A stretch of 64,000 nucleotides of DNA from Escherichia phage FEC14. Positions 9,907 to 56,690 of this stretch are shown one piece after another. Below the pieces are notes generated by a model. That model worked only from the letters and a program-made list of their open reading frames with translations, ran no database searches and was not told where the DNA came from. A program made the position numbers and the translations under genes. Each line of letters starts with the position of its first letter. Position 1 is the stretch's first letter. The stretch lies in the sequence record MG383452, one strand, 5' to 3'.

Positions 9907-9914
9907 TATAAATA
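9907..9914 (+). promoter_or_regulatory. T4-type late promoter TATAAATA
   Basis: exact TATAAATA about 35 nt upstream of the plus-strand gene start. Confidence 0.5.
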
Positions 9915-14703: not shown

Positions 14704-14711
14704 TATAAATA
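14704..14711 (+). promoter_or_regulatory. T4-type late promoter TATAAATA
   Basis: exact TATAAATA 28 nt upstream of ATG 14740, GGAG RBS between. Confidence 0.5.
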
Positions 14712-29642: not shown

Positions 29643-29650
29643 TATTTATA
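29643..29650 (-). promoter_or_regulatory. T4-type late promoter TATAAATA (minus strand)
   Basis: plus-strand TATTTATA = minus TATAAATA, 24 nt upstream of ATG 29618. Confidence 0.5.
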
Positions 29651-29674: not shown

Positions 29675-31591
29675 TCAGATCTTAATCTGCATATTGCCGC
29701 CCAGGGACTGCTCGTACTCGCTGTACGCGCTTTCCCCGTTGCTTGCAGCCCATTCGTCAGACTGCTGAGCGCGAGACAGAGTCATCAGGTTTGGTTCAGT
29801 CGGGTTGTATCCCTTGGACTTAGCATCCTGGTACAGAGTCTGCAGGTACTGGTTAGCGCGATCGATTTGAGCCTTGAACTCGCGATATGCACCTTCGGTT
29901 GTGTTACGACGGAAGGTGATATCCCAGTCCACGTTCAGAGTCTGACCATCACGGCTTGCATAGATCTGCCAATCCAGGTCGCGACCTTTTGGAGCGTTGT
30001 CGCGGATGGAGCCTGCATATGTTGCCAGGTCTACACCAGTCTTTTTAGCGGTCGCTAAAACCAAGGGTGCCAAGCGATCAATAGCGGTTTGCACTATTGC
30101 GGTCAGTTTGGACGGTTTGGTGATGTCGATGTCTCGGATGACGATAGGCTGGCCGATGGTCTTCCCATTCGGTCCATATTCGGTAATTGCTTTGACAGTC
30201 AGCACAATAGGATCACTTCCTTTGGTGATACCACGGTTGATCGTCGCTGTTACAGCCCCTTTCGCGCCAAAAGAGACACTACCGGAGGCCATCGTAGAAG
30301 AAGACACACCACGAAGTTCATTTACTTTGTAGAATGCGTTCACCAGAGCACGCCAGCGGTCTGTTGTGAGTTCGGCTGCCGTGGTTTGAGCAGGAGCCAC
30401 AGCCCCAACGCCAAATTCAACATAAGCCACAATCTTGCCACCCGACTTCAGTTCCCAACCCATACCCTGACGGTCAGAAGCCGCCATGAGTTTACGATCC
30501 ACTTCCCCACGACCAACATATTCTTTGTTGAATACGGTCACCTGAGCGATAGATTGGGAGCGGGCAATCTTCGCCATTGCGCCATCTTTGACCATGATGG
30601 CCAGATCATTGGAACTCAGAGTCACGTCGTTGGCACCGACTACCTTCACAACAGAACTGAAGATGCCGTTGGATTTCGCCATGACGGAAATGTTCCAGTC
30701 AGGGTTGGCATCACTGGTCGGGAAGTTAATTTCACGCCAGTCTTTGACGCGTTGGTTGAAATTATTGAGCAGATCCGAAGGAGGAACAGGAACACCAAAT
30801 TCACGACAAATATCTTCTACGGTCGGTTCTACCACCTGCTTTCTACCGTTCTGACCAACGAGGACATCGGCCTCACTCAGGCTTGGGGTAATGTCCAAGT
30901 CAAATGTGCCACGCTGATAATAGTTGATGCGAGGAGGCTGACCGATCTTACCACGCCATGACCAGGTTGCGGGATTGTTGGTAGTAGCGCCAACATTAGT
31001 GTCTTGAGTATCGTTCTGAACCGGAACGTCGCCGACCTTGTCTGGATCATCCCATGTGACACCTTTCATTTTCGGACCATCGAATACCTGAGCAGGATCC
31101 TTACCTTTACGCACAACCCATACGAATGCACGATCAGGGATAGGGGTATACGTCAGGTCCATGACATTGAGCTTCTGCTTCAGGCCGGACTGACGGATGA
31201 TCTTCGGCAGGAGGGTAACACCACGTTCCAATGCTTTCTTGGAGAAGTTAATTGCAAAGCCGTCAATGGTTTTCCCCAAAGGCGTCGCCATGAATTGCTT
31301 TGTTGCTTCGATCATGGATGCGATGACACGCATTGGGTTTTTGAAACGACCGATTGCGTCTGGATAGGTCGAACCACGTTTCTGGCCTATGAAGACCTGA
31401 CGAACGTTCTTGCCCAGCCCCTGCGGGGTATAAAATTGGATGCGGAATTCTTTTTCGTCTTCATCAACAAATGTGAAGAAAATGTCACCAGCGTTCTTCT
31501 TACCGAATGTCAATTCATACGGGGATGAGTTAAACGCTTCGTCTAATTGTTTAGACTCTTCAAGAAAGTTCAAGAAAGATGGGATGGCCAT
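29675..31591 (-). CDS. large protein (638 aa) with capsid-targeting-like N-terminus; candidate packaged/injected protein
   Basis: MAIPSFLNFLEE-S leader resembling L-x-E cleavage context; AGGAGA RBS. Confidence 0.5.
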   Translation of the reverse strand: MAIPSFLNFLEESKQLDEAFNSSPYELTFGKKNAGDIFFTFVDEDEKEFRIQFYTPQGLGKNVRQVFIGQKRGSTYPDAIGRFKNPMRVIASMIEATKQFMATPLGKTIDGFAINFSKKALERGVTLLPKIIRQSGLKQKLNVMDLTYTPIPDRAFVWVVRKGKDPAQVFDGPKMKGVTWDDPDKVGDVPVQNDTQDTNVGATTNNPATWSWRGKIGQPPRINYYQRGTFDLDITPSLSEADVLVGQNGRKQVVEPTVEDICREFGVPVPPSDLLNNFNQRVKDWREINFPTSDANPDWNISVMAKSNGIFSSVVKVVGANDVTLSSNDLAIMVKDGAMAKIARSQSIAQVTVFNKEYVGRGEVDRKLMAASDRQGMGWELKSGGKIVAYVEFGVGAVAPAQTTAAELTTDRWRALVNAFYKVNELRGVSSSTMASGSVSFGAKGAVTATINRGITKGSDPIVLTVKAITEYGPNGKTIGQPIVIRDIDITKPSKLTAIVQTAIDRLAPLVLATAKKTGVDLATYAGSIRDNAPKGRDLDWQIYASRDGQTLNVDWDITFRRNTTEGAYREFKAQIDRANQYLQTLYQDAKSKGYNPTEPNLMTLSRAQQSDEWAASNGESAYSEYEQSLGGNMQIKI

Positions 31592-48231: not shown

Positions 48232-48264
48232 TAAAAGTAAAAATCCCCAACGTTTGTTGGGGAT
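48232..48264 (-). terminator. rho-independent terminator downstream of ACP-like gene
   Basis: ATCCCCAAC-GTTT-GTTGGGGAT hairpin followed by TTTTACTTTT on minus strand. Confidence 0.5.
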
Positions 48265-48270
48265 CTTCAG

Positions 48271-48603
48271 TTACTTGCGCAGGGCAACCACGTATTCGGC
48301 AAGTTCACCCATGGTCGGGTCGTCGCCTTTACCGCCCAGCCAGCCATCAGAGATCTCGACATTGAACTCTTCTTCTAGTTCCATGACGATTTCGATGGCA
48401 TCAAGATCGTCGCCGCCGAGGTCTTTCTTGGTGCGGAGGCCAGCCAGTTTATCCAGGGCGTCATTCATAATCACTTCCGCGTCGACGATGCCTTTGATGC
48501 TGCTCTTGTCTTCGTCACTGACTTCCAGGTTCAGATTGTCAGTGGCGTACTGAGCCAGGTGACGCATTACTTCAACATAAGTTGGTTTGTTTGACATAAG
48601 CAT
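48271..48603 (-). CDS. acyl carrier protein-like protein lacking the phosphopantetheine serine
   Basis: 110 aa; DLGGDDLDAIEIVMELEEEF aligns with E. coli ACP [20 protein letters not shown], Ser replaced by Asp; C-terminal extension. Confidence 0.55.
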   Translation of the reverse strand: MLMSNKPTYVEVMRHLAQYATDNLNLEVSDEDKSSIKGIVDAEVIMNDALDKLAGLRTKKDLGGDDLDAIEIVMELEEEFNVEISDGWLGGKGDDPTMGELAEYVVALRK

Positions 48604-48632
48604 ATCTCAAAATGAAGGCGGGTTTCCCCGCC
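48604..48632 (-). terminator. stem-loop/terminator (GGCGGG-TTTC-CCCGCC) of cassette family
   Basis: hairpin followed by TTCATTTTGAGAT and ATG of ACP-like gene. Confidence 0.45.
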
Positions 48633-48640
48633 AGTTGAAT

Positions 48641-50857
48641 TTAGATTTTGACTTCTTTTTCAGCCAGTTCGGCAGTGACAGTGTATTTCACCCCATCAAC
48701 TTCCACATCCATAGTGGATTCTTCCAAATCCAGGTCGGTAAACCAACCATGGCCTGCAACAATCCCATAAACTACCTTGGACAGCGTTTTGTTCAGAGAT
48801 CGAACTTCGTTGATAGCTGCTTTTGCTGCATCACCAATCCAACTTTCGATCAGCTTTTTCTGAGTCTCTTCCGGTACGCTGGTGATCATCGGCGATTTAA
48901 CAAACGCATTGTATTCGGCCAGGGCATTAGCGATCAGCTGATCAGCGACATTCAGTTTTTTACCGTCCGTCTGTTTTTTGATAACAGACGCGATGCTCGG
49001 CAGTGAAGATGCGCCTTTGATTTTCACATTCAATTCACGACTCATATAGACATCGGTTGATTCTACAGAAGAAGTCTTCGGTGAAAATCCATAGTCGCGA
49101 ATGCCGTTTGCTGACAGGAAATCAGCCGCTTCTTTGCCATATTTTGAAGCCAGACCAGTAGCGTTGCCTTTGCCAACCAGTTCATCACGGTAGAATTTCA
49201 GAACTTTTTGCTTTGCCTTCAATGCTTCACGGCGCACATTGTCTGCAAAGAATTCAGCAGCACTGATATTCTTTGTCATGGCGCGGTTAACCATTGGGAC
49301 ACTTTCCAGATTTACAATGAAGACTTCCGGCCCACCAAACACATGAACACCCATGGCAGTCAAATCCTGTGCCACCTTAGCCCGAATAATCGGAGAATCT
49401 GCAGTGATAGGCATTGTTTTCAGGTTGATGATACCATCCTTGACAATGGTGTAATTGCGATAACGCCAGGTTCCCAGCTCTTCAGGAAGTTCATATTTCT
49501 TCTGTACAAACTCAGGCACAACAACCGTTCCGTGTTGAACTGTCTGCACACTGATGTTAGGACGTTCTGAATTGTAGACCAAATTGCTGATCGGGACAAT
49601 CCCTTTATCATCTGCTGGATTGAATTCGGGGGTCCAATCTTCGTGCTCGGCCAGTTTGAGCGCCAGGGCTTTACGCTCTTCTTTAGAAGTCGCATTCGCA
49701 ATCTCTTCGGCCAACTTGTCTTCGGTGTCATCAACTTTCTGTACAGTACCGCGCCCAATGCTCTTGTAAGAGAATAGCGGATGCTTAGTGACAATAGAGA
49801 CATCTGCTTCAGCCAGATACGTCAGAACATCAACAATGGTGGTGGCGTCTTCAGCCGGAACCATATTATAATCGATGCCATCAACTCCTCGCAGAGATTC
49901 GTCTACGATAGCCTGGGTCAGATCGACTTTGATGTTGGAATAGTCCTGCTTGGTGAAACAGTTGCTGTATTGTTTGATGAAGCGGACGTCACCCGTTTTC
50001 TTCAGCGCAGCCCAAACCAAATCTGCGTCCATGGTATACACGCCGTAAAATGCCAGCACGTATGCCGCTTGGATGTCTGCCAGATTATCCAGCTGGTCGA
50101 TCATGTTGGGGTTTACAACCCACAGCTGAGAAACGCTTTCAGGGATGCTGACGTGGCCAATAGGGTGCTCTTCATCAGGATGCACAGCTAAAACAGTCGC
50201 CACGCCATTTTCAACATAAATGGCATGGGTGTAAACCAGGGGAACATCGACCACCACTTTCGGTGAAGAAGTTTTTAGCACGTTTTCCAATTCGGTCTGA
50301 TATTCATTCTGGCCTTCGGCGAATACGTGGGTCGCACCAGAACGTTCTGCCATTAGCGCCAGCAGTTCGCGATTACAATACCAACCGTATTCGATGAAGG
50401 TAATGTTATCAAACGCTTTGGGCAGTACTTCAGCGGCATCCAGGATTTCATTAGAACGCCAGCAGTTGTCATATCCGTCAGTCATGAATGCCAGGTTATT
50501 AACATAACCAGGTTTATTCAGGCTAATGGCAGTTTCCGCAGCCAATTTCAGCGGCTCAACAAAACCAGTACAACCAGAAGGCTTCAGGAAACGGTCAATT
50601 AGATTATTGATCTCAGTGAGATCAGTTGCACTGTTAATCTGACGTCCGGCAAATACCGTTCCGAAATCACCGCGAGATGAAAAGTAAAGGATGCTCACAG
50701 TATCTTCCGGTTTCACCAGGGAAGGCAGGTTCTCCTTCAGATGCTTACGGACTTCTGGAAGTGAACGATACATGGAACCGGAGATATCCACAACGATTAC
50801 ATGGTTAGACGGCGCGACGGTCGCAACCGCATTCTTAAATGTTAATGATTCAATCAT
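48641..50857 (-). CDS. von Willebrand factor A (VWA) domain protein (738 aa)
   Basis: N-terminal MIDAS-like VIVVDISGSMYRS; ATG 50857 with GAAGG RBS (tracked ORF starts at upstream GTG). Confidence 0.55.
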   Translation of the reverse strand: MIESLTFKNAVATVAPSNHVIVVDISGSMYRSLPEVRKHLKENLPSLVKPEDTVSILYFSSRGDFGTVFAGRQINSATDLTEINNLIDRFLKPSGCTGFVEPLKLAAETAISLNKPGYVNNLAFMTDGYDNCWRSNEILDAAEVLPKAFDNITFIEYGWYCNRELLALMAERSGATHVFAEGQNEYQTELENVLKTSSPKVVVDVPLVYTHAIYVENGVATVLAVHPDEEHPIGHVSIPESVSQLWVVNPNMIDQLDNLADIQAAYVLAFYGVYTMDADLVWAALKKTGDVRFIKQYSNCFTKQDYSNIKVDLTQAIVDESLRGVDGIDYNMVPAEDATTIVDVLTYLAEADVSIVTKHPLFSYKSIGRGTVQKVDDTEDKLAEEIANATSKEERKALALKLAEHEDWTPEFNPADDKGIVPISNLVYNSERPNISVQTVQHGTVVVPEFVQKKYELPEELGTWRYRNYTIVKDGIINLKTMPITADSPIIRAKVAQDLTAMGVHVFGGPEVFIVNLESVPMVNRAMTKNISAAEFFADNVRREALKAKQKVLKFYRDELVGKGNATGLASKYGKEAADFLSANGIRDYGFSPKTSSVESTDVYMSRELNVKIKGASSLPSIASVIKKQTDGKKLNVADQLIANALAEYNAFVKSPMITSVPEETQKKLIESWIGDAAKAAINEVRSLNKTLSKVVYGIVAGHGWFTDLDLEESTMDVEVDGVKYTVTAELAEKEVKI

Positions 50858-51020
50858 CGTTATTACCTTCTTTAGTGGTATGGACGGCTTCACCTTCCGG
50901 CTTCGCCAGCATGTGTTCTATGAATTCGCGATTAGTTTCAATCTGTTGGATTAAAACTTCGCTGGGTTTAAACTGTGAGTCAAGAGAGTCAACTCCTGAA
51001 CGCAAAAATGGTTTGGTCAT
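50850..51020 (-). CDS. small ORF (56 aa), translationally coupled
   Basis: unlisted frame MTKPFLRSGVDSLDSQFKPSEVLIQQ...; start 1 nt after upstream stop, stop overlaps VWA start (ATGA). Confidence 0.3.
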   Translation of the reverse strand: MTKPFLRSGVDSLDSQFKPSEVLIQQIETNREFIEHMLAKPEGEAVHTTKEGNNDD

Positions 51021-51021
51021 A

Positions 51022-51381
51022 TCAATTCCCTTTCACTTCCATGACACCAGAAATATTCTTCAGGGCTTCACGGACTTCCGACGCCTTATCTTTCTTTACA
51101 ATCACAACAATGAAAGAAAAGTTCTTTTTCTTACGCCAATTCTTGAAATGAGTGACCAACTGGATATCTTTCTCTTCAGCACCACTTTCTCCAGCTACAG
51201 GGATATAAACTGTGCCTGACTCAATTACGACATCAGCATCGTCTGGAATATTTTCATCGAGTTCTTCACGGTATTCTCCATTAACTTTGACGCAATGATC
51301 ATCGTGCCAAGCACCCTTTTCCCAATATTCGTCATCGTTATAGTAGGCGTTGAATTCAACACCTTTCATTTTTACGGACAT
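51022..51381 (-). CDS. hypothetical protein (119 aa)
   Basis: ORF track. Confidence 0.45.
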   Translation of the reverse strand: MSVKMKGVEFNAYYNDDEYWEKGAWHDDHCVKVNGEYREELDENIPDDADVVIESGTVYIPVAGESGAEEKDIQLVTHFKNWRKKKNFSFIVVIVKKDKASEVREALKNISGVMEVKGN

Positions 51382-52841: not shown

Positions 52842-52870
52842 TCCAAAAGAAACCCCGCACACGGCGGGGT
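52842..52870 (-). terminator. rho-independent terminator
   Basis: CCCCGC-ACACG-GCGGGG hairpin followed by TTTCTTTTGG on minus strand. Confidence 0.45.
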
Positions 52871-52892
52871 TGCTCAGGCCGGAGCCGACAGA

Positions 52893-53301: not shown

Positions 53302-55320
53302 TTAGAAGATGACTTTTACAGTACGGTTAAACGCGCCGGACACTTTGACGAACACGTGGTTGCGTTGCGTCGTTGAGAATCCCAGACCGGACAGTTGGTT
53401 TTCATTCGGCTGGACTTTCATTTTACTACCCAACATTTCAAAAACCTTACGATGTTTATCCAGTTCCGGCTTCAGATATTCGTTGTAGAAACCACGAGTA
53501 CCTTCAGGATTAGCACAGCCTTCAAGAATGAAGAACACATGCTTGTTACCAGTTTGCTCCCCATCCCAATGGTTTGGTGAATTCAGAACCAGCTGTACTT
53601 TCTGGAAGGTCGCAGTCTTGATACCCCAAACTTCTTTAGACTTATCAACATTAGCCAGTTCGGACTTAATGCTAACGACTTGTTTGTCTTTAACAGTCAG
53701 GATGACTGCAGTGATACGCCCCTGATCTTTCAGGCCAGGATGGCTGAAACGATGCGTTGCGCCTTTGTATTCTACTTCGACTTCAAACCCTTCGTCGATC
53801 TTTTCACGTTGATTGTAGTTGTGGATTTCGAAACGGTATTCACCATCGCGCAGCTTGCTTTCATCTGTAAAGATGATATTTTCCACCGGAGCGCGGTTTG
53901 GATCAATACCATCCATACCGTTCATATCGATATCCAGATGGGCACCTGTCATAGAGCGACGATCACGGAAGTACACGTGCTCCATATTGTTAAAGAACAT
54001 ATGAAGATCGAGGTCGTCGTTATTGTGCCACGCCAAGGAAACGCGCAGATACCCGTCAACTTTACCACCAGCAGCCTTTACACGTTCTTTAATGGAATCG
54101 GTCACTTCACCGTTGTAAGACCAGGAGAACCCGTTGTTCCACTTGAACAGGTTAGGCGCATCTGGGTTCGCCGGAGCAACCAGGGACATCAGGTTGCTAG
54201 TATGAGAATTCTCTACAAGCACTTCCATTGAATGCGCTTTTGGCAGAACATTGCTCAGGAAATCATCAACGCTGATCTCTTCAACTTTTTCCAGGGACTT
54301 GGTCGGAGTTTTCACTTCGGCGGCCAGCTGTGCAAACGGATCCATCGCTTTCTGAGCAGCCAGATCTGCGAACAGAACGTTGTTGATTGTCAGATCATCG
54401 TAAACCGCATAACGACGCGCCAGTGAGTCTTCCAAACCCAGAGCAATAACTTCTTTCTGAGCGTTTTCGATCATGGATTTTGAAACCAGCGCTGTCGGAC
54501 GTTTGTAGTTCGCCGGAGCAACTTTGGATTCAAACGATTTAACAGCCTTTTCCAGTTCCACGCCTTCGCTGATATCTGTCAGCAGAGTGCCGATAACTGT
54601 GTTACGGATGCCGTGTGGAACATGATTGTTTGAACGGTATCCAGTATGCCATGCCCACAGAGAACGGGCTGATTCGGGGATTTGTTCATACGCTTTTTTG
54701 GTTTCAACAAATCCCTTCACTGCTGCTTTGTGTTCTGCGCCGCGATACAGAGAATTCTGGTCAATCAGTTCCAGAACGATTTCAGCTGATTCCAGAGTAA
54801 TTTCACGCAGACCGCGTTCAAACAATTCAATAGCCTGGCGGATTTCACCTTTTTTCGAAGCGATTGCGTCCGGACGCAGAACATAGCTACCCAGCAGGTC
54901 GGTGTGGAAGTGGTTGTAGGTGCGGACATTGCCGTCTTTCATTTCGTGATTCGACTCAACACCGACTTTCTTGGTATCGTTGAAGTACACGTCGACGATT
55001 ACGTGTTGCTTGACATACGCAGACAGCGCCGCAGCCACCACGTCATATTCATTACCCAGATCAATGTTGTCCCAGATAGAAATTACGTTCAGGTCGGAGT
55101 CGATGGTGATCACACCGCCGATGTTACGGATGAATTGTTTACAGCAGGTGCAGTCGTGCTCAGTACGCTCACGGTAGAGCGGGTTGGTACCAGCAGGGAA
55201 AGATGCCAGATACAGATCCCAAAGAGCATCTTTATCGATATTGGTCATGAACAGACCAGTTGCGGACATCGCCAGCACGTTGTTATTAACTGCCGTTGCG
55301 AAGGGTTTGAATTCTGCCAT
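53302..55320 (-). CDS. large hypothetical protein (672 aa)
   Basis: ORF track; no motif recognised by eye; lies in the operon downstream of regA. Confidence 0.55.
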   Translation of the reverse strand: MAEFKPFATAVNNNVLAMSATGLFMTNIDKDALWDLYLASFPAGTNPLYRERTEHDCTCCKQFIRNIGGVITIDSDLNVISIWDNIDLGNEYDVVAAALSAYVKQHVIVDVYFNDTKKVGVESNHEMKDGNVRTYNHFHTDLLGSYVLRPDAIASKKGEIRQAIELFERGLREITLESAEIVLELIDQNSLYRGAEHKAAVKGFVETKKAYEQIPESARSLWAWHTGYRSNNHVPHGIRNTVIGTLLTDISEGVELEKAVKSFESKVAPANYKRPTALVSKSMIENAQKEVIALGLEDSLARRYAVYDDLTINNVLFADLAAQKAMDPFAQLAAEVKTPTKSLEKVEEISVDDFLSNVLPKAHSMEVLVENSHTSNLMSLVAPANPDAPNLFKWNNGFSWSYNGEVTDSIKERVKAAGGKVDGYLRVSLAWHNNDDLDLHMFFNNMEHVYFRDRRSMTGAHLDIDMNGMDGIDPNRAPVENIIFTDESKLRDGEYRFEIHNYNQREKIDEGFEVEVEYKGATHRFSHPGLKDQGRITAVILTVKDKQVVSIKSELANVDKSKEVWGIKTATFQKVQLVLNSPNHWDGEQTGNKHVFFILEGCANPEGTRGFYNEYLKPELDKHRKVFEMLGSKMKVQPNENQLSGLGFSTTQRNHVFVKVSGAFNRTVKVIF

Positions 55321-55433: not shown

Positions 55434-56690
55434 TTATTCAGGTTTCTTCAAACGATCTAATAAATTGACCGATCCGCGATTGAGGACAATTTCATCGCAT
55501 CGATTTTTGTATCTCCCGCCTCCATCATAACCGACCTTGCCGCGTGGCTTTTCCCCTCTCTCGATAGCCTCAACACAGCGGGTGTACTTGCTCAATTCAC
55601 AGAACATGTTCTCCAGCTGCATGACGTTCATGCACTGATCTTCCGGCGCTTCGGCTGACCAGAACTGCTCTTGGACATAACCATACTGAGCAAACAATTG
55701 ATACTGATGATCACGAACCCAGAATATGCATTCTTCATGAGTCATGCCGTCCTTATCCAGGAACATCAGGTCAATACCCGCACGGCAACCTGGACCAGCA
55801 ATAGTGAAATGATTCTCACTGAATGGATATTCATCGATGTATGTAAAATCAACCCAAATCTGGTATGCCAAGAATGGTCCAAGCCCCTCAATGTCGTCAT
55901 ACATCGCCTGGTAAACAGAGTCGGGACGGCTAAATTCCCTGAGGCGATCAAAGTAATGAGGGTGTTTGTTGACGAATGCCTTCAAAGAGCGAATGACTCG
56001 CATCGGCATGTATGGTTCCCAGCCTTCTATTTTGTATTCACCAGGATTATCTTCGGCCAGCTTCTTGGCAACCTTGTAATCCATTTCATCTATAACACCA
56101 CCCACCCGATGGACTTTTACCTTCATGCCGCCAAAGCGTTGCTCCTTATGGTTGACAACCAGTTCAGGGAAAGCTAGGCATTGTTTCAGACCGCCTGTAT
56201 TAAACGCATTGGTGAAAACTTTGCCACCTTTAGATTCGAATTCCTGAAGAACATCTCGACACCATTCAAGATTTATGTTTCCGAATTCTTCGATCGTCCA
56301 TGGACCACCCAAAGCCTGTATAGGTTCCCACATGTTGTACATGCGGAACAATACACAGTTAAACATTTTGTCAGATAGCGTGAGATCCTGATCGAGGATG
56401 ATATTATTGATCAAATTTCGAGACTGCCTATCGTGCTCTCTCCGGACGTTACAGAACTTGACCTGCCGTAGTATGGGATTATCCGTCCAAGGAGCAGGAA
56501 GACGCTGGACGTCCTTTCTCACGTGGATCTTATAACGCTCGCTCATCCATTCGTATGCGAGTTGTTTATGGAATGGGCTTAACATGGGATGTGCAGATTT
56601 AATTTTAACTTCCCGAACACCGCAATAAGGAATGTCACACGGTTTATCTTTCATGGTATCCTCTCTAGAATACAAAAAAACAGAGGCCAT
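55434..56690 (-). CDS. hypothetical protein (406-418 aa); candidate DNA-modification enzyme by context
   Basis: ORF track; alternative ATG at 56654 with GAGG RBS; first ATG sits in terminator loop. Confidence 0.5.
   Translation of the reverse strand: MASVFLYSREDTMKDKPCDIPYCGVREVKIKSAHPMLSPFHKQLAYEWMSERYKIHVRKDVQRLPAPWTDNPILRQVKFCNVRREHDRQSRNLINNIILDQDLTLSDKMFNCVLFRMYNMWEPIQALGGPWTIEEFGNINLEWCRDVLQEFESKGGKVFTNAFNTGGLKQCLAFPELVVNHKEQRFGGMKVKVHRVGGVIDEMDYKVAKKLAEDNPGEYKIEGWEPYMPMRVIRSLKAFVNKHPHYFDRLREFSRPDSVYQAMYDDIEGLGPFLAYQIWVDFTYIDEYPFSENHFTIAGPGCRAGIDLMFLDKDGMTHEECIFWVRDHQYQLFAQYGYVQEQFWSAEAPEDQCMNVMQLENMFCELSKYTRCVEAIERGEKPRGKVGYDGGGRYKNRCDEIVLNRGSVNLLDRLKKPE

Follow-up and report, generated by a model that had tools for sequence, protein, structure and literature searches.

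A phage family of VWA-domain proteins, represented in Escherichia phage FEC14, with an invariant predicted metal site, an apparent ArnB-like core and a C-terminal module without detectable relatives

The window analysed here, a stretch of 64,000 nucleotides from Escherichia phage FEC14 (record MG383452), encodes on its minus strand a 738-amino acid protein with a von Willebrand factor type A (VWA) domain. Based on profile searches, structural models and genomic comparisons, we tentatively favour the reading that this VWA protein is an autonomous binding platform that depends on Mg2+ and a MIDAS (metal ion-dependent adhesion site), and that is soluble, cytoplasmic and non-structural, with a second function residing in its C-terminal module. 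The VWA and MIDAS part is ordinary; a core resembling that of ArnB and Sec23/24 in a phage protein is out of the ordinary.

48641-50857, minus strand: complete VWA-family gene, 738 amino acids (open reading frame (ORF) list, CBA120 orthology, PHROG 2426); stop codon at 48641-48643

The window is ~99% identical to Escherichia coli phage CBA120 (Kuttervirus, Ackermannviridae), and the VWA gene is the orthologue of CBA120 orf143/gp113 (99.2% nucleotide identity), a ‘hypothetical protein’ in that record. The encoded protein has a full-length match (1265.6 bits; its residues 1-738 aligned to positions 2-736 of the 736-position profile) to PHROG 2426, a family without an assigned function in PHROG, in the CBA120 record or in GenBank labels. 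An exhaustive family profile search with the C-terminal region retrieved 1,384 clusters at 50% identity, 877 of them with E<1e-30, and nearly all of the proteins in the clusters listed are 700-820 amino acids long, with the C-terminal module starting at residue ~250-320. Full-length family members are present in 502 GenBank phage records, from Ackermannviridae, Slopekvirus (KP15/KP27), Pseudotevenvirus (the RB43 group), Rhizobium phages and the jumbo phage PBS1, and almost all are labelled as hypothetical or as ‘VWA domain-containing protein’. Taken together, the 99% identity to CBA120 orf143, the PHROG 2426 match, the 502 GenBank records and the 1,384 clusters show that the 738-amino acid ORF is a genuine gene and not a chance ORF.

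The family is essentially phage-only. Loci from IMG/VR are on contigs of 140-180 kb, plus jumbo-phage contigs of 240-512 kb, and cellular genomes (~186,000 species of bacteria and archaea, each represented by a single genome) yielded just seven loci, mostly on contigs that are phage-sized or belong to metagenome-assembled genomes. A phage-sized contig of 178 kb in a Flagellimonas marina assembly (L085) encodes a family protein with 48% identity to the query, as in RB43-group phages; this contig is probably a co-assembled phage rather than the site of a chromosomal gene. A 487 kb contig of Achromobacter anxifer (L090) also encodes a family member. The first-pass annotation of this DNA had left the function of the protein open, in keeping with the literature, in which no paper on the family was found and the KP15/KP27 paper is silent on the gene. 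The PADLOC anti-phage defence profiles gave no match to the 738-amino acid protein at E<=0.1.

The VWA domain and its metal site are laid out as follows:

50273-50809, minus strand: VWA domain, residues 17-195 (Pfam, AlphaFold2 model, Foldseek)
50774-50788, minus strand: MIDAS loop 1, D24-x-S26-x-S28 (invariant in 33/33 sequences; aligns with ArnB DTSGS)
50567-50569, minus strand: MIDAS loop 2, Thr97 (invariant in 33/33 and 46/46 sequences)
50477-50479, minus strand: MIDAS loop 3, Asp127, in the motif TDGYDN (invariant in 33/33 and 46/46 sequences)

Pfam VWA (PF00092) matches residues 20-182 at 31.1 bits (E=3.3e-7) against a gathering threshold of 23.8, and the corresponding region of the AlphaFold2 model consists of alternating β-strands and helices with a predicted local distance difference test score (pLDDT) of about 90. 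The DxSxS signature (D24/S26/S28) is within VIVVDISGSMYRS, which spans residues 20-32. In an independent set of 33 sequences, which represent 32 lineages after clustering at 60% identity and reach down to ~28% identity to the query, D24, S26, S28, T97 and D127 are unchanged throughout, and a separate 46-sequence alignment shows no or almost no variation at the MIDAS residues. The MIDAS is thus complete, with DxSxS, Thr and Asp on three loops, and metal binding is predicted. The first-pass annotation had read a MIDAS-type motif in the N-terminal part, to be given up if profile alignment did not support it; in a search of the family profile against the PDB the best sequence match was ArnB (8s05; E=1.6e-4), with all three MIDAS loops aligned, and this supports the earlier assignment.

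Structural modelling extends the resemblance to ArnB beyond the VWA domain, through the following elements:

50840-50851, minus strand: short N-terminal strand, residues 3-6 (AlphaFold2 model)
50111-50272, minus strand: β-sandwich region, residues 196-249, with strands at 200-248 (AlphaFold2 model, Foldseek alignments)
49802-50110, minus strand: helical bundle, residues 250-352, with helices at 250-318 and 341-350 (models, conservation)

The full-length AlphaFold2 model, built on the family alignment, has a mean pLDDT of 88.6 and a predicted template modelling (pTM) score of 0.75. Foldseek retrieved more than 300 PDB matches to this model with E<=1e-3, led by VWA proteins with E down to 1e-10. 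The best was 4fx5, a Catenulispora VWA protein (E=1e-10; template modelling (TM) score 0.53 on target; 402 columns), and ArnB/ArnAB (8s05) matched at E=4e-10 over ~380 columns; further matches were to ITIH1 and pilus adhesins, then to Sec23/24 at E of about 1e-6. In ArnB, a vWA domain is inserted in an eight-stranded β-sandwich that is followed by a helical bundle, and the cores of 4fx5, YfbK and Sec23/24 are alike (PMC12852372). Residues ~1-350 of the phage protein look like this core of VWA domain, β-sandwich and helical bundle; the strand at residues 3-6 probably belongs to the β-sandwich, and the equivalence of β-sandwich and bundle is suggested by the order of secondary structure elements in the model and by alignment length. 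The putative bundle carries a conserved NCFTKQDYS motif and conserved D290 and Q304. The first-pass annotation had left about 550 C-terminal residues unassigned; for residues ~196-350 this no longer stands, given the resemblance to the ArnB/4fx5/Sec23-24 core, and it holds for the final ~390 residues, which are without detectable relatives.

The closest known systems are the archaeal (Sulfolobus) proteins ArnB and ArnE (8s05, 5a8j) together with 4fx5, a bacterial protein from structural genomics; these are the best fold matches (E of 1e-10 to 3e-8; TM 0.45-0.53 on target; 380-400 columns), at a sequence identity of only 12-15%. With ArnB, the best sequence-profile match, the phage protein appears to share the order of N-terminal strand, VWA domain, β-strands and helical bundle, and all these proteins have a MIDAS and a cytoplasmic location, which for the phage protein is predicted. 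However, ArnB is ~380 amino acids long and ends after the bundle, whereas the phage protein has ~390 further residues of unrelated fold, and the partners of ArnB are the zinc-finger-FHA protein ArnA, the kinase ArnC and a phosphatase, none of which travels with the phage family. Sec23 and Sec24, of the COPII inner coat, have a comparable order of trunk (VWA-like), β-sandwich and helical domain (E of about 1e-6; 465-520 columns); unlike these proteins, the phage protein is without an N-terminal zinc finger, the superposition is poor (TM 0.24; root-mean-square deviation ~13 Å), and the C-terminal model matches neither the helical nor the gelsolin domains.

The C-terminal ~390 residues are a confidently modelled, phage-specific module without a detectable relative, with the following modelled parts:

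48644-49801, minus strand: phage-specific C-terminal module, residues 353-738 (model; no Pfam or PDB relatives)
Within the C-terminal module, minus strand: variable helical insert, residues ~375-405 (model)
49283-49627, minus strand: β-rich domain, residues 411-525, 411-524 in the model (model, conservation)
Within the C-terminal module, minus strand: two units, each of long helices and a β-hairpin, residues 525-738 (model)

Modelled separately, residues 250-738 gave a pLDDT of 88.1 and a pTM of 0.79. The domain search of the C-terminal part that the first-pass annotation had recommended gave no Pfam match to the module even at E<=10, no match among PDB sequences with either the single sequence or the profile, and no fold match in the PDB by Foldseek with the model of residues 250-738 (best E=0.33; TM<0.2). 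The module could well prove to have a new fold. No internal duplication was detected with hhalign. A precomputed match to PF26044 in one homologue was not reproduced by Pfam scan and was set aside. Against the viral predicted structures of BFVD there were four matches, three of them family members or fragments; the fourth, A0A127AX08 of Bacillus phage SP-15 (361 amino acids; E=1.6e-10; TM 0.58 on target; 12% identity), appears from its predicted structure to be the C-terminal module alone, without a VWA domain. Within the family's proteins of ~700-820 amino acids the module is always joined to an N-terminal VWA part; ten distant members all have an N-terminal VWA signal, most below the Pfam threshold.

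Conservation along the protein is highest in three places: the VWA domain, the β-rich domain together with the segment that follows, and NCFTKQDYS of the helical region. In the β-rich domain, a polar cluster formed by R432, N434, S436, R467, D474, N524 and R525 is invariant across the 33 sequences, in the motifs RPNxS, YRNYTIVKDGI and PLxNR, and conservation extends to the 46-sequence alignment; S617, beyond this domain, is likewise invariant. Such a cluster in a confidently modelled domain would suit a protein that is mainly an enzyme, in which the new-fold module is catalytic (acting, for example, on nucleic acid or on an intermediate of DNA or RNA metabolism) and the VWA domain serves as a tether. 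Genes of DNA metabolism usually surround the family gene (those for DNA polymerase B, ligases, helicases, topoisomerase II and ribonucleotide reductase), certain carriers have unusual DNA (Kuttervirus, with hypermodified thymidine genes nearby, PBS1 and SP-15), and an apparent stand-alone copy of the module is present in SP-15. However, searches of Pfam, of PDB sequences and of PDB folds revealed no enzyme family similar to the module, there is no consistent metabolic neighbour, the link to DNA modification is anecdotal, and the invariant polar residues would suit a binding interface equally well. We therefore regard a mainly enzymatic role as unlikely.

MoxR-class ATPases are the working partners of many cytoplasmic VWA proteins of prokaryotes in which the MIDAS is intact, and the phage protein could likewise be the VWA subunit of a MoxR/CobS-type AAA+ pair, comparable to ViaA-RavA, NorD-NorQ, CbbO-CbbQ, CobT-CobS or BchD-BchI, with an ATPase that has its gene in another part of the phage genome or is supplied by the host. 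In favour of this, the MIDAS is intact and does not vary, this is a common mode of action for proteins of its type, and use of a host ATPase is conceivable; the phage protein shares with ViaA, NorD, CbbO, CoxE, CobT and BchD/ChlD a cytoplasmic, prokaryotic-type VWA domain. The first-pass annotation had seen no AAA+ partner nearby and had suggested a search of the full genome. No MoxR/CobS-type ATPase was found in the 64-kb window, none is annotated in the CBA120 genome and none was found among its large unassigned proteins, in agreement with that observation. Across the family, 78 loci were fetched, in 77 of which the VWA-family gene was identified (32 lineages), and batch Pfam scans covered the two genes nearest to it on either side and then the next two (236 proteins). 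The families listed for these neighbours do not include a MoxR family (AAA_3/AAA_5); the only AAA-type matches are helicase-class domains, plus classical AAA (PF00004) in two proteins. In addition, NCBIfam gave no meaningful match to the 738-amino acid protein and none to CobT, ViaA or BchD, Pfam likewise placed it in none of the MoxR-associated families, and the C-terminal region differs from those of the MoxR-associated proteins. A AAA+ pairing is accordingly improbable.

The same neighbourhoods revealed no other partner. Across the 236 proteins, no Pfam family occurs in more than two, and BLAST clustering of neighbour ORFs produced no cluster in more than 6/32 lineages; those that recur consist of T4 core genes or homing endonucleases, encoded for the most part on the other strand, and a conserved partner by guilt-by-association was rejected on these grounds. 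No ArnA-type zinc-finger/FHA or kinase-phosphatase partners recur among the neighbours. The genes surrounding the VWA gene in FEC14 (the 56-amino acid, 119-amino acid, ACP-like, gp49/66-like, DUF3268, 672-amino acid and HMUDK-like genes) were considered as partners and rejected, being near the VWA gene in one to four of the 32 lineages. Since no partner gene, AAA+ or other, travels with the family, the VWA protein would act autonomously.

Certain distant lineages carry genes for ligases, a helicase or a protease nearby: an RNA ligase gene beside the VWA-family gene (L006, 10100-11254), RtcB and a SprT-like protease (L009, 2828-4273 and 10432-10938), and a DNA ligase and PIF1 helicase ahead of it (L008, 4004-7982). 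Genes for SprT-like proteases are near the VWA-family gene in at least three lineages, too sporadically for an association. These contexts raise the idea of an RNA/DNA repair or quality-control factor working with ligases, similar to Ro60 (TROVE and VWA) or Ku (VWA and β-barrel); as in Ro60/Rsr and Ku70/80, a VWA domain is fused to a large second module, and ligases are occasionally close. However, the gene associations are each confined to 1-3 of the 32 lineages, no TROVE or Ku domain was detected by Pfam, neither fold is in the top 50 matches of either model, and the protein is strongly acidic overall (isoelectric point 5.05; net charge -26), with residues 525-620 alone mildly basic. It is improbable that the protein acts like these repair factors, and we give this about the same low weight as the AAA+ pairing.

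With respect to location, no signal peptide or hydrophobic segment was identified in the protein: the N-terminus, MIESLTFKNAVATVAPSNH, is not hydrophobic, and the maximum Kyte-Doolittle value in a 19-residue window is 1.29, unlike secreted or surface VWA adhesins such as pilus tip proteins and the YfbK/BatA type. The first-pass annotation had raised a role in protein-protein assembly, and a place in the virion or in its assembly (as a VWA tail component of adhesin type or as a scaffold) could be argued from the pilus tip adhesins among the fold matches, from one GenBank orthologue labelled ‘minor tail protein’, and from several lineages in which the gene borders baseplate or head genes. Virion proteomics, a check that the first-pass annotation had proposed, has been published for Sajous1, a close relative: in its CsCl-purified particles the protein was represented by one spectrum, against 924 for the capsid protein, a level equal to that of thymidylate synthase, dUTPase and clamp loader (PMC10892097), which argues against a structural part in the virion. 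Structural genes in the neighbourhood mostly run the other way (same-strand fraction 0-0.2), and the genome position of the gene is variable. A scan of the whole window for the T4-type late-promoter motif TATAAATA found three sites (9907-9914 and 14704-14711, plus strand; 29643-29650, minus strand), a count not above chance, and none near the VWA gene; two of the sites are just 5' of genes for structural proteins (tail tube, baseplate hub) that are on the plus strand inside the minus-strand early region. We consider a virion role very improbable. On the minus strand, the VWA gene is part of an extended block made up of replication and early/middle genes, and the KP27 orthologue belongs to a series of small genes, behind putative middle promoters annotated there and opposite late baseplate genes. 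The protein is probably made early or mid infection.

In integrin I-domains and intracellular MIDAS proteins, the metal site recruits a carboxylate of the ligand protein. By analogy, Mg2+ would be held in the phage protein by D24, S26, S28, T97 and D127, and its coordination would be completed by an Asp or Glu carboxylate of a specific host or phage ligand protein. The C-terminal module would then act on the captured target, either as a further binding surface or as a catalytic site, in a role tied to host takeover or to DNA/RNA metabolism and not to virion building.

Several points weigh against this favoured reading of the protein as a MIDAS-dependent binding platform with an ArnB-like core. 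Ligand and metal binding are both predictions by analogy, and the conservation of the MIDAS proves selection on the site and not the identity of a ligand. The invariant polar cluster could point to a protein that is chiefly enzymatic, to which the VWA domain is only an accessory. The assignment of residues 250-350 to an ArnB-type bundle derives from alignment length alone; the C-terminal model by itself (residues 250-738) retrieved neither ArnB nor Sec23/24 by Foldseek, and the second alignment stretch of the family profile, against the ArnB helical bundle, was not significant. The suggested early or middle timing draws on gene position and motif absence only.

A bolder version, which we put forward as a long shot, sees in the family a viral equivalent of the ArnB/Sec23-24 core that stands alone, in which the invariant MIDAS captures an exposed carboxylate of one specific target and the new-fold module is enzymatic or serves host takeover (for example, anti-defence). 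The ACP-like protein encoded beside the VWA gene would be one candidate ligand in Ackermannviridae, since its phosphopantetheine Ser is replaced in every copy examined by Asp or Glu, the residue type that a MIDAS metal recruits.

The family represents an 80-kDa protein that large T4-like and jumbo phages have kept across very deep divergence, with an unchanging metal site. More than half of the protein has no recognisable relative. With its 1,384 clusters and 502 sequenced isolates, which include therapy-candidate phages of Salmonella, E. coli O157 and Klebsiella, the family is among the larger unexplored ones of phage proteins. The invariant MIDAS offers a clean experimental handle on the target. 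Should that target turn out to be a host factor or part of a defence system, the phages would have a new mode of host takeover; otherwise, the gene would still be a well-defined conserved marker of the phage groups that carry it.

The immediate surroundings of the VWA gene in FEC14 include the following features:

50866-50870, minus strand: Shine-Dalgarno-like GAAGG, 8 nt 5' of the ATG at 50857 (read from sequence)
50850-51020, minus strand: 56-amino acid ORF, PHROG 8656, translationally coupled to the VWA gene (ORF list, sequence)
51022-51381, minus strand: 119-amino acid ORF, PHROG 4254 (ORF list, sequence)
48617-48632, minus strand: terminator-like GC hairpin with T-rich tail (sequence, terminator scan)

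The open frame has two possible starts on the minus strand, a GTG at 50893 (750 amino acids) and an ATG at 50857 (738 amino acids). The ATG is the supported start, because it has the GAAGG Shine-Dalgarno sequence 8 nt upstream, homologues start at the same Met, and the CBA120 start is identical. The 56-amino acid ORF overlaps the start of the VWA gene by 8 nt (ATGATTGA), and the stop of the 119-amino acid ORF is 1 nt ahead of the ATG of the 56-amino acid ORF (TGAtATG); the coupled stops and starts described in the first-pass annotation can thus be read directly at both junctions. Its placement of the VWA gene directly upstream of the ACP-like gene (48271-48603, minus strand) is likewise true, with the terminator-like hairpin between the two. 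However, the 56-amino acid ORF is present in this context in 1/32 lineages, the 119-amino acid ORF in 2/32 and the ACP-like gene in 2/32. This coupling and adjacency are local synteny, and these three genes therefore do not define a functional unit of the family. The 119-amino acid ORF has no annotated counterpart in CBA120, where the gap between orf145 and orf146 is only ~100 nt, and is present in just 6/77 related loci (two lineages); it is therefore a variable insertion in FEC14.

The hairpin at 48617-48632 reads GGCGGG-GAAA-CCCGCC followed by TTCATTTT, directly 3' of the VWA stop codon, and was scored in the terminator scan as six G-C pairs with a 4-nt loop and the tail TTCATTTTGA. A second terminator-like hairpin (48240-48265, minus strand; ATCCCCAACAAACGTTGGGGATTTTT) is 3' of the ACP-like gene, and a third (52851-52871, minus strand; AACCCCGC...GCGGGGTT then TCTTTT) is just 5' of the gene for a DUF3268 zinc-finger protein, which is 1.5 kb upstream of the VWA gene, a context found in 2/32 lineages. 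The hairpins at 52851-52871 and 48617-48632, with that at 48240-48265, may bound a transcription unit running from the DUF3268 gene to the VWA gene. A scan for sigma-70 promoters found 10, against 7.4 ± 2.9 expected, which is not above chance.

The ACP-like family is confined to Ackermannviridae. The FEC14 protein has a Pfam PP-binding match in which the phosphopantetheine Ser reads Asp (DLGGDDLD), and among the homologues encoded beside the VWA gene this position is occupied by Asp or Glu in 21/21 cases (DDLD or DELD). Based on this replacement, the family is probably unable to carry a prosthetic group at the usual site. In phages such as Se-B and barely, the VWA protein is 99% identical to that of FEC14 and the ACP-like protein only ~60% identical; SeF6a and CBA6 encode a 100% identical ACP-like allele. 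The region is a mosaic, and this suggests replacement or rapid divergence of the ACP-like allele beside a conserved VWA gene.

Further upstream, the 672-amino acid protein (53302-55320, minus strand; CBA120 orf153, PHROG 1735) has no Pfam match and was found by hhalign to be unrelated to the C-terminal module of the VWA protein; a distant relative in L008 (25% identity over 428 residues) has a precomputed DUF8224 match. The 418-amino acid protein (55434-56690, minus strand), encoded 4.5 kb upstream of the VWA gene, matches HMUDK_hel, the helical domain of 5-hmdU DNA kinase (E=2.7e-84). The other thymidine-hypermodification genes of CBA120, for HMUD2 kinase, amino acid:DNA transferase and a PLP enzyme (149500-152403), are about 60-70 kb away. 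Elsewhere in the window, a 638-amino acid ORF (29675-31591, minus strand) has no Pfam match; its positional counterpart in CBA120 is orf111 (794 amino acids), annotated as a ‘possible fusion protein’.

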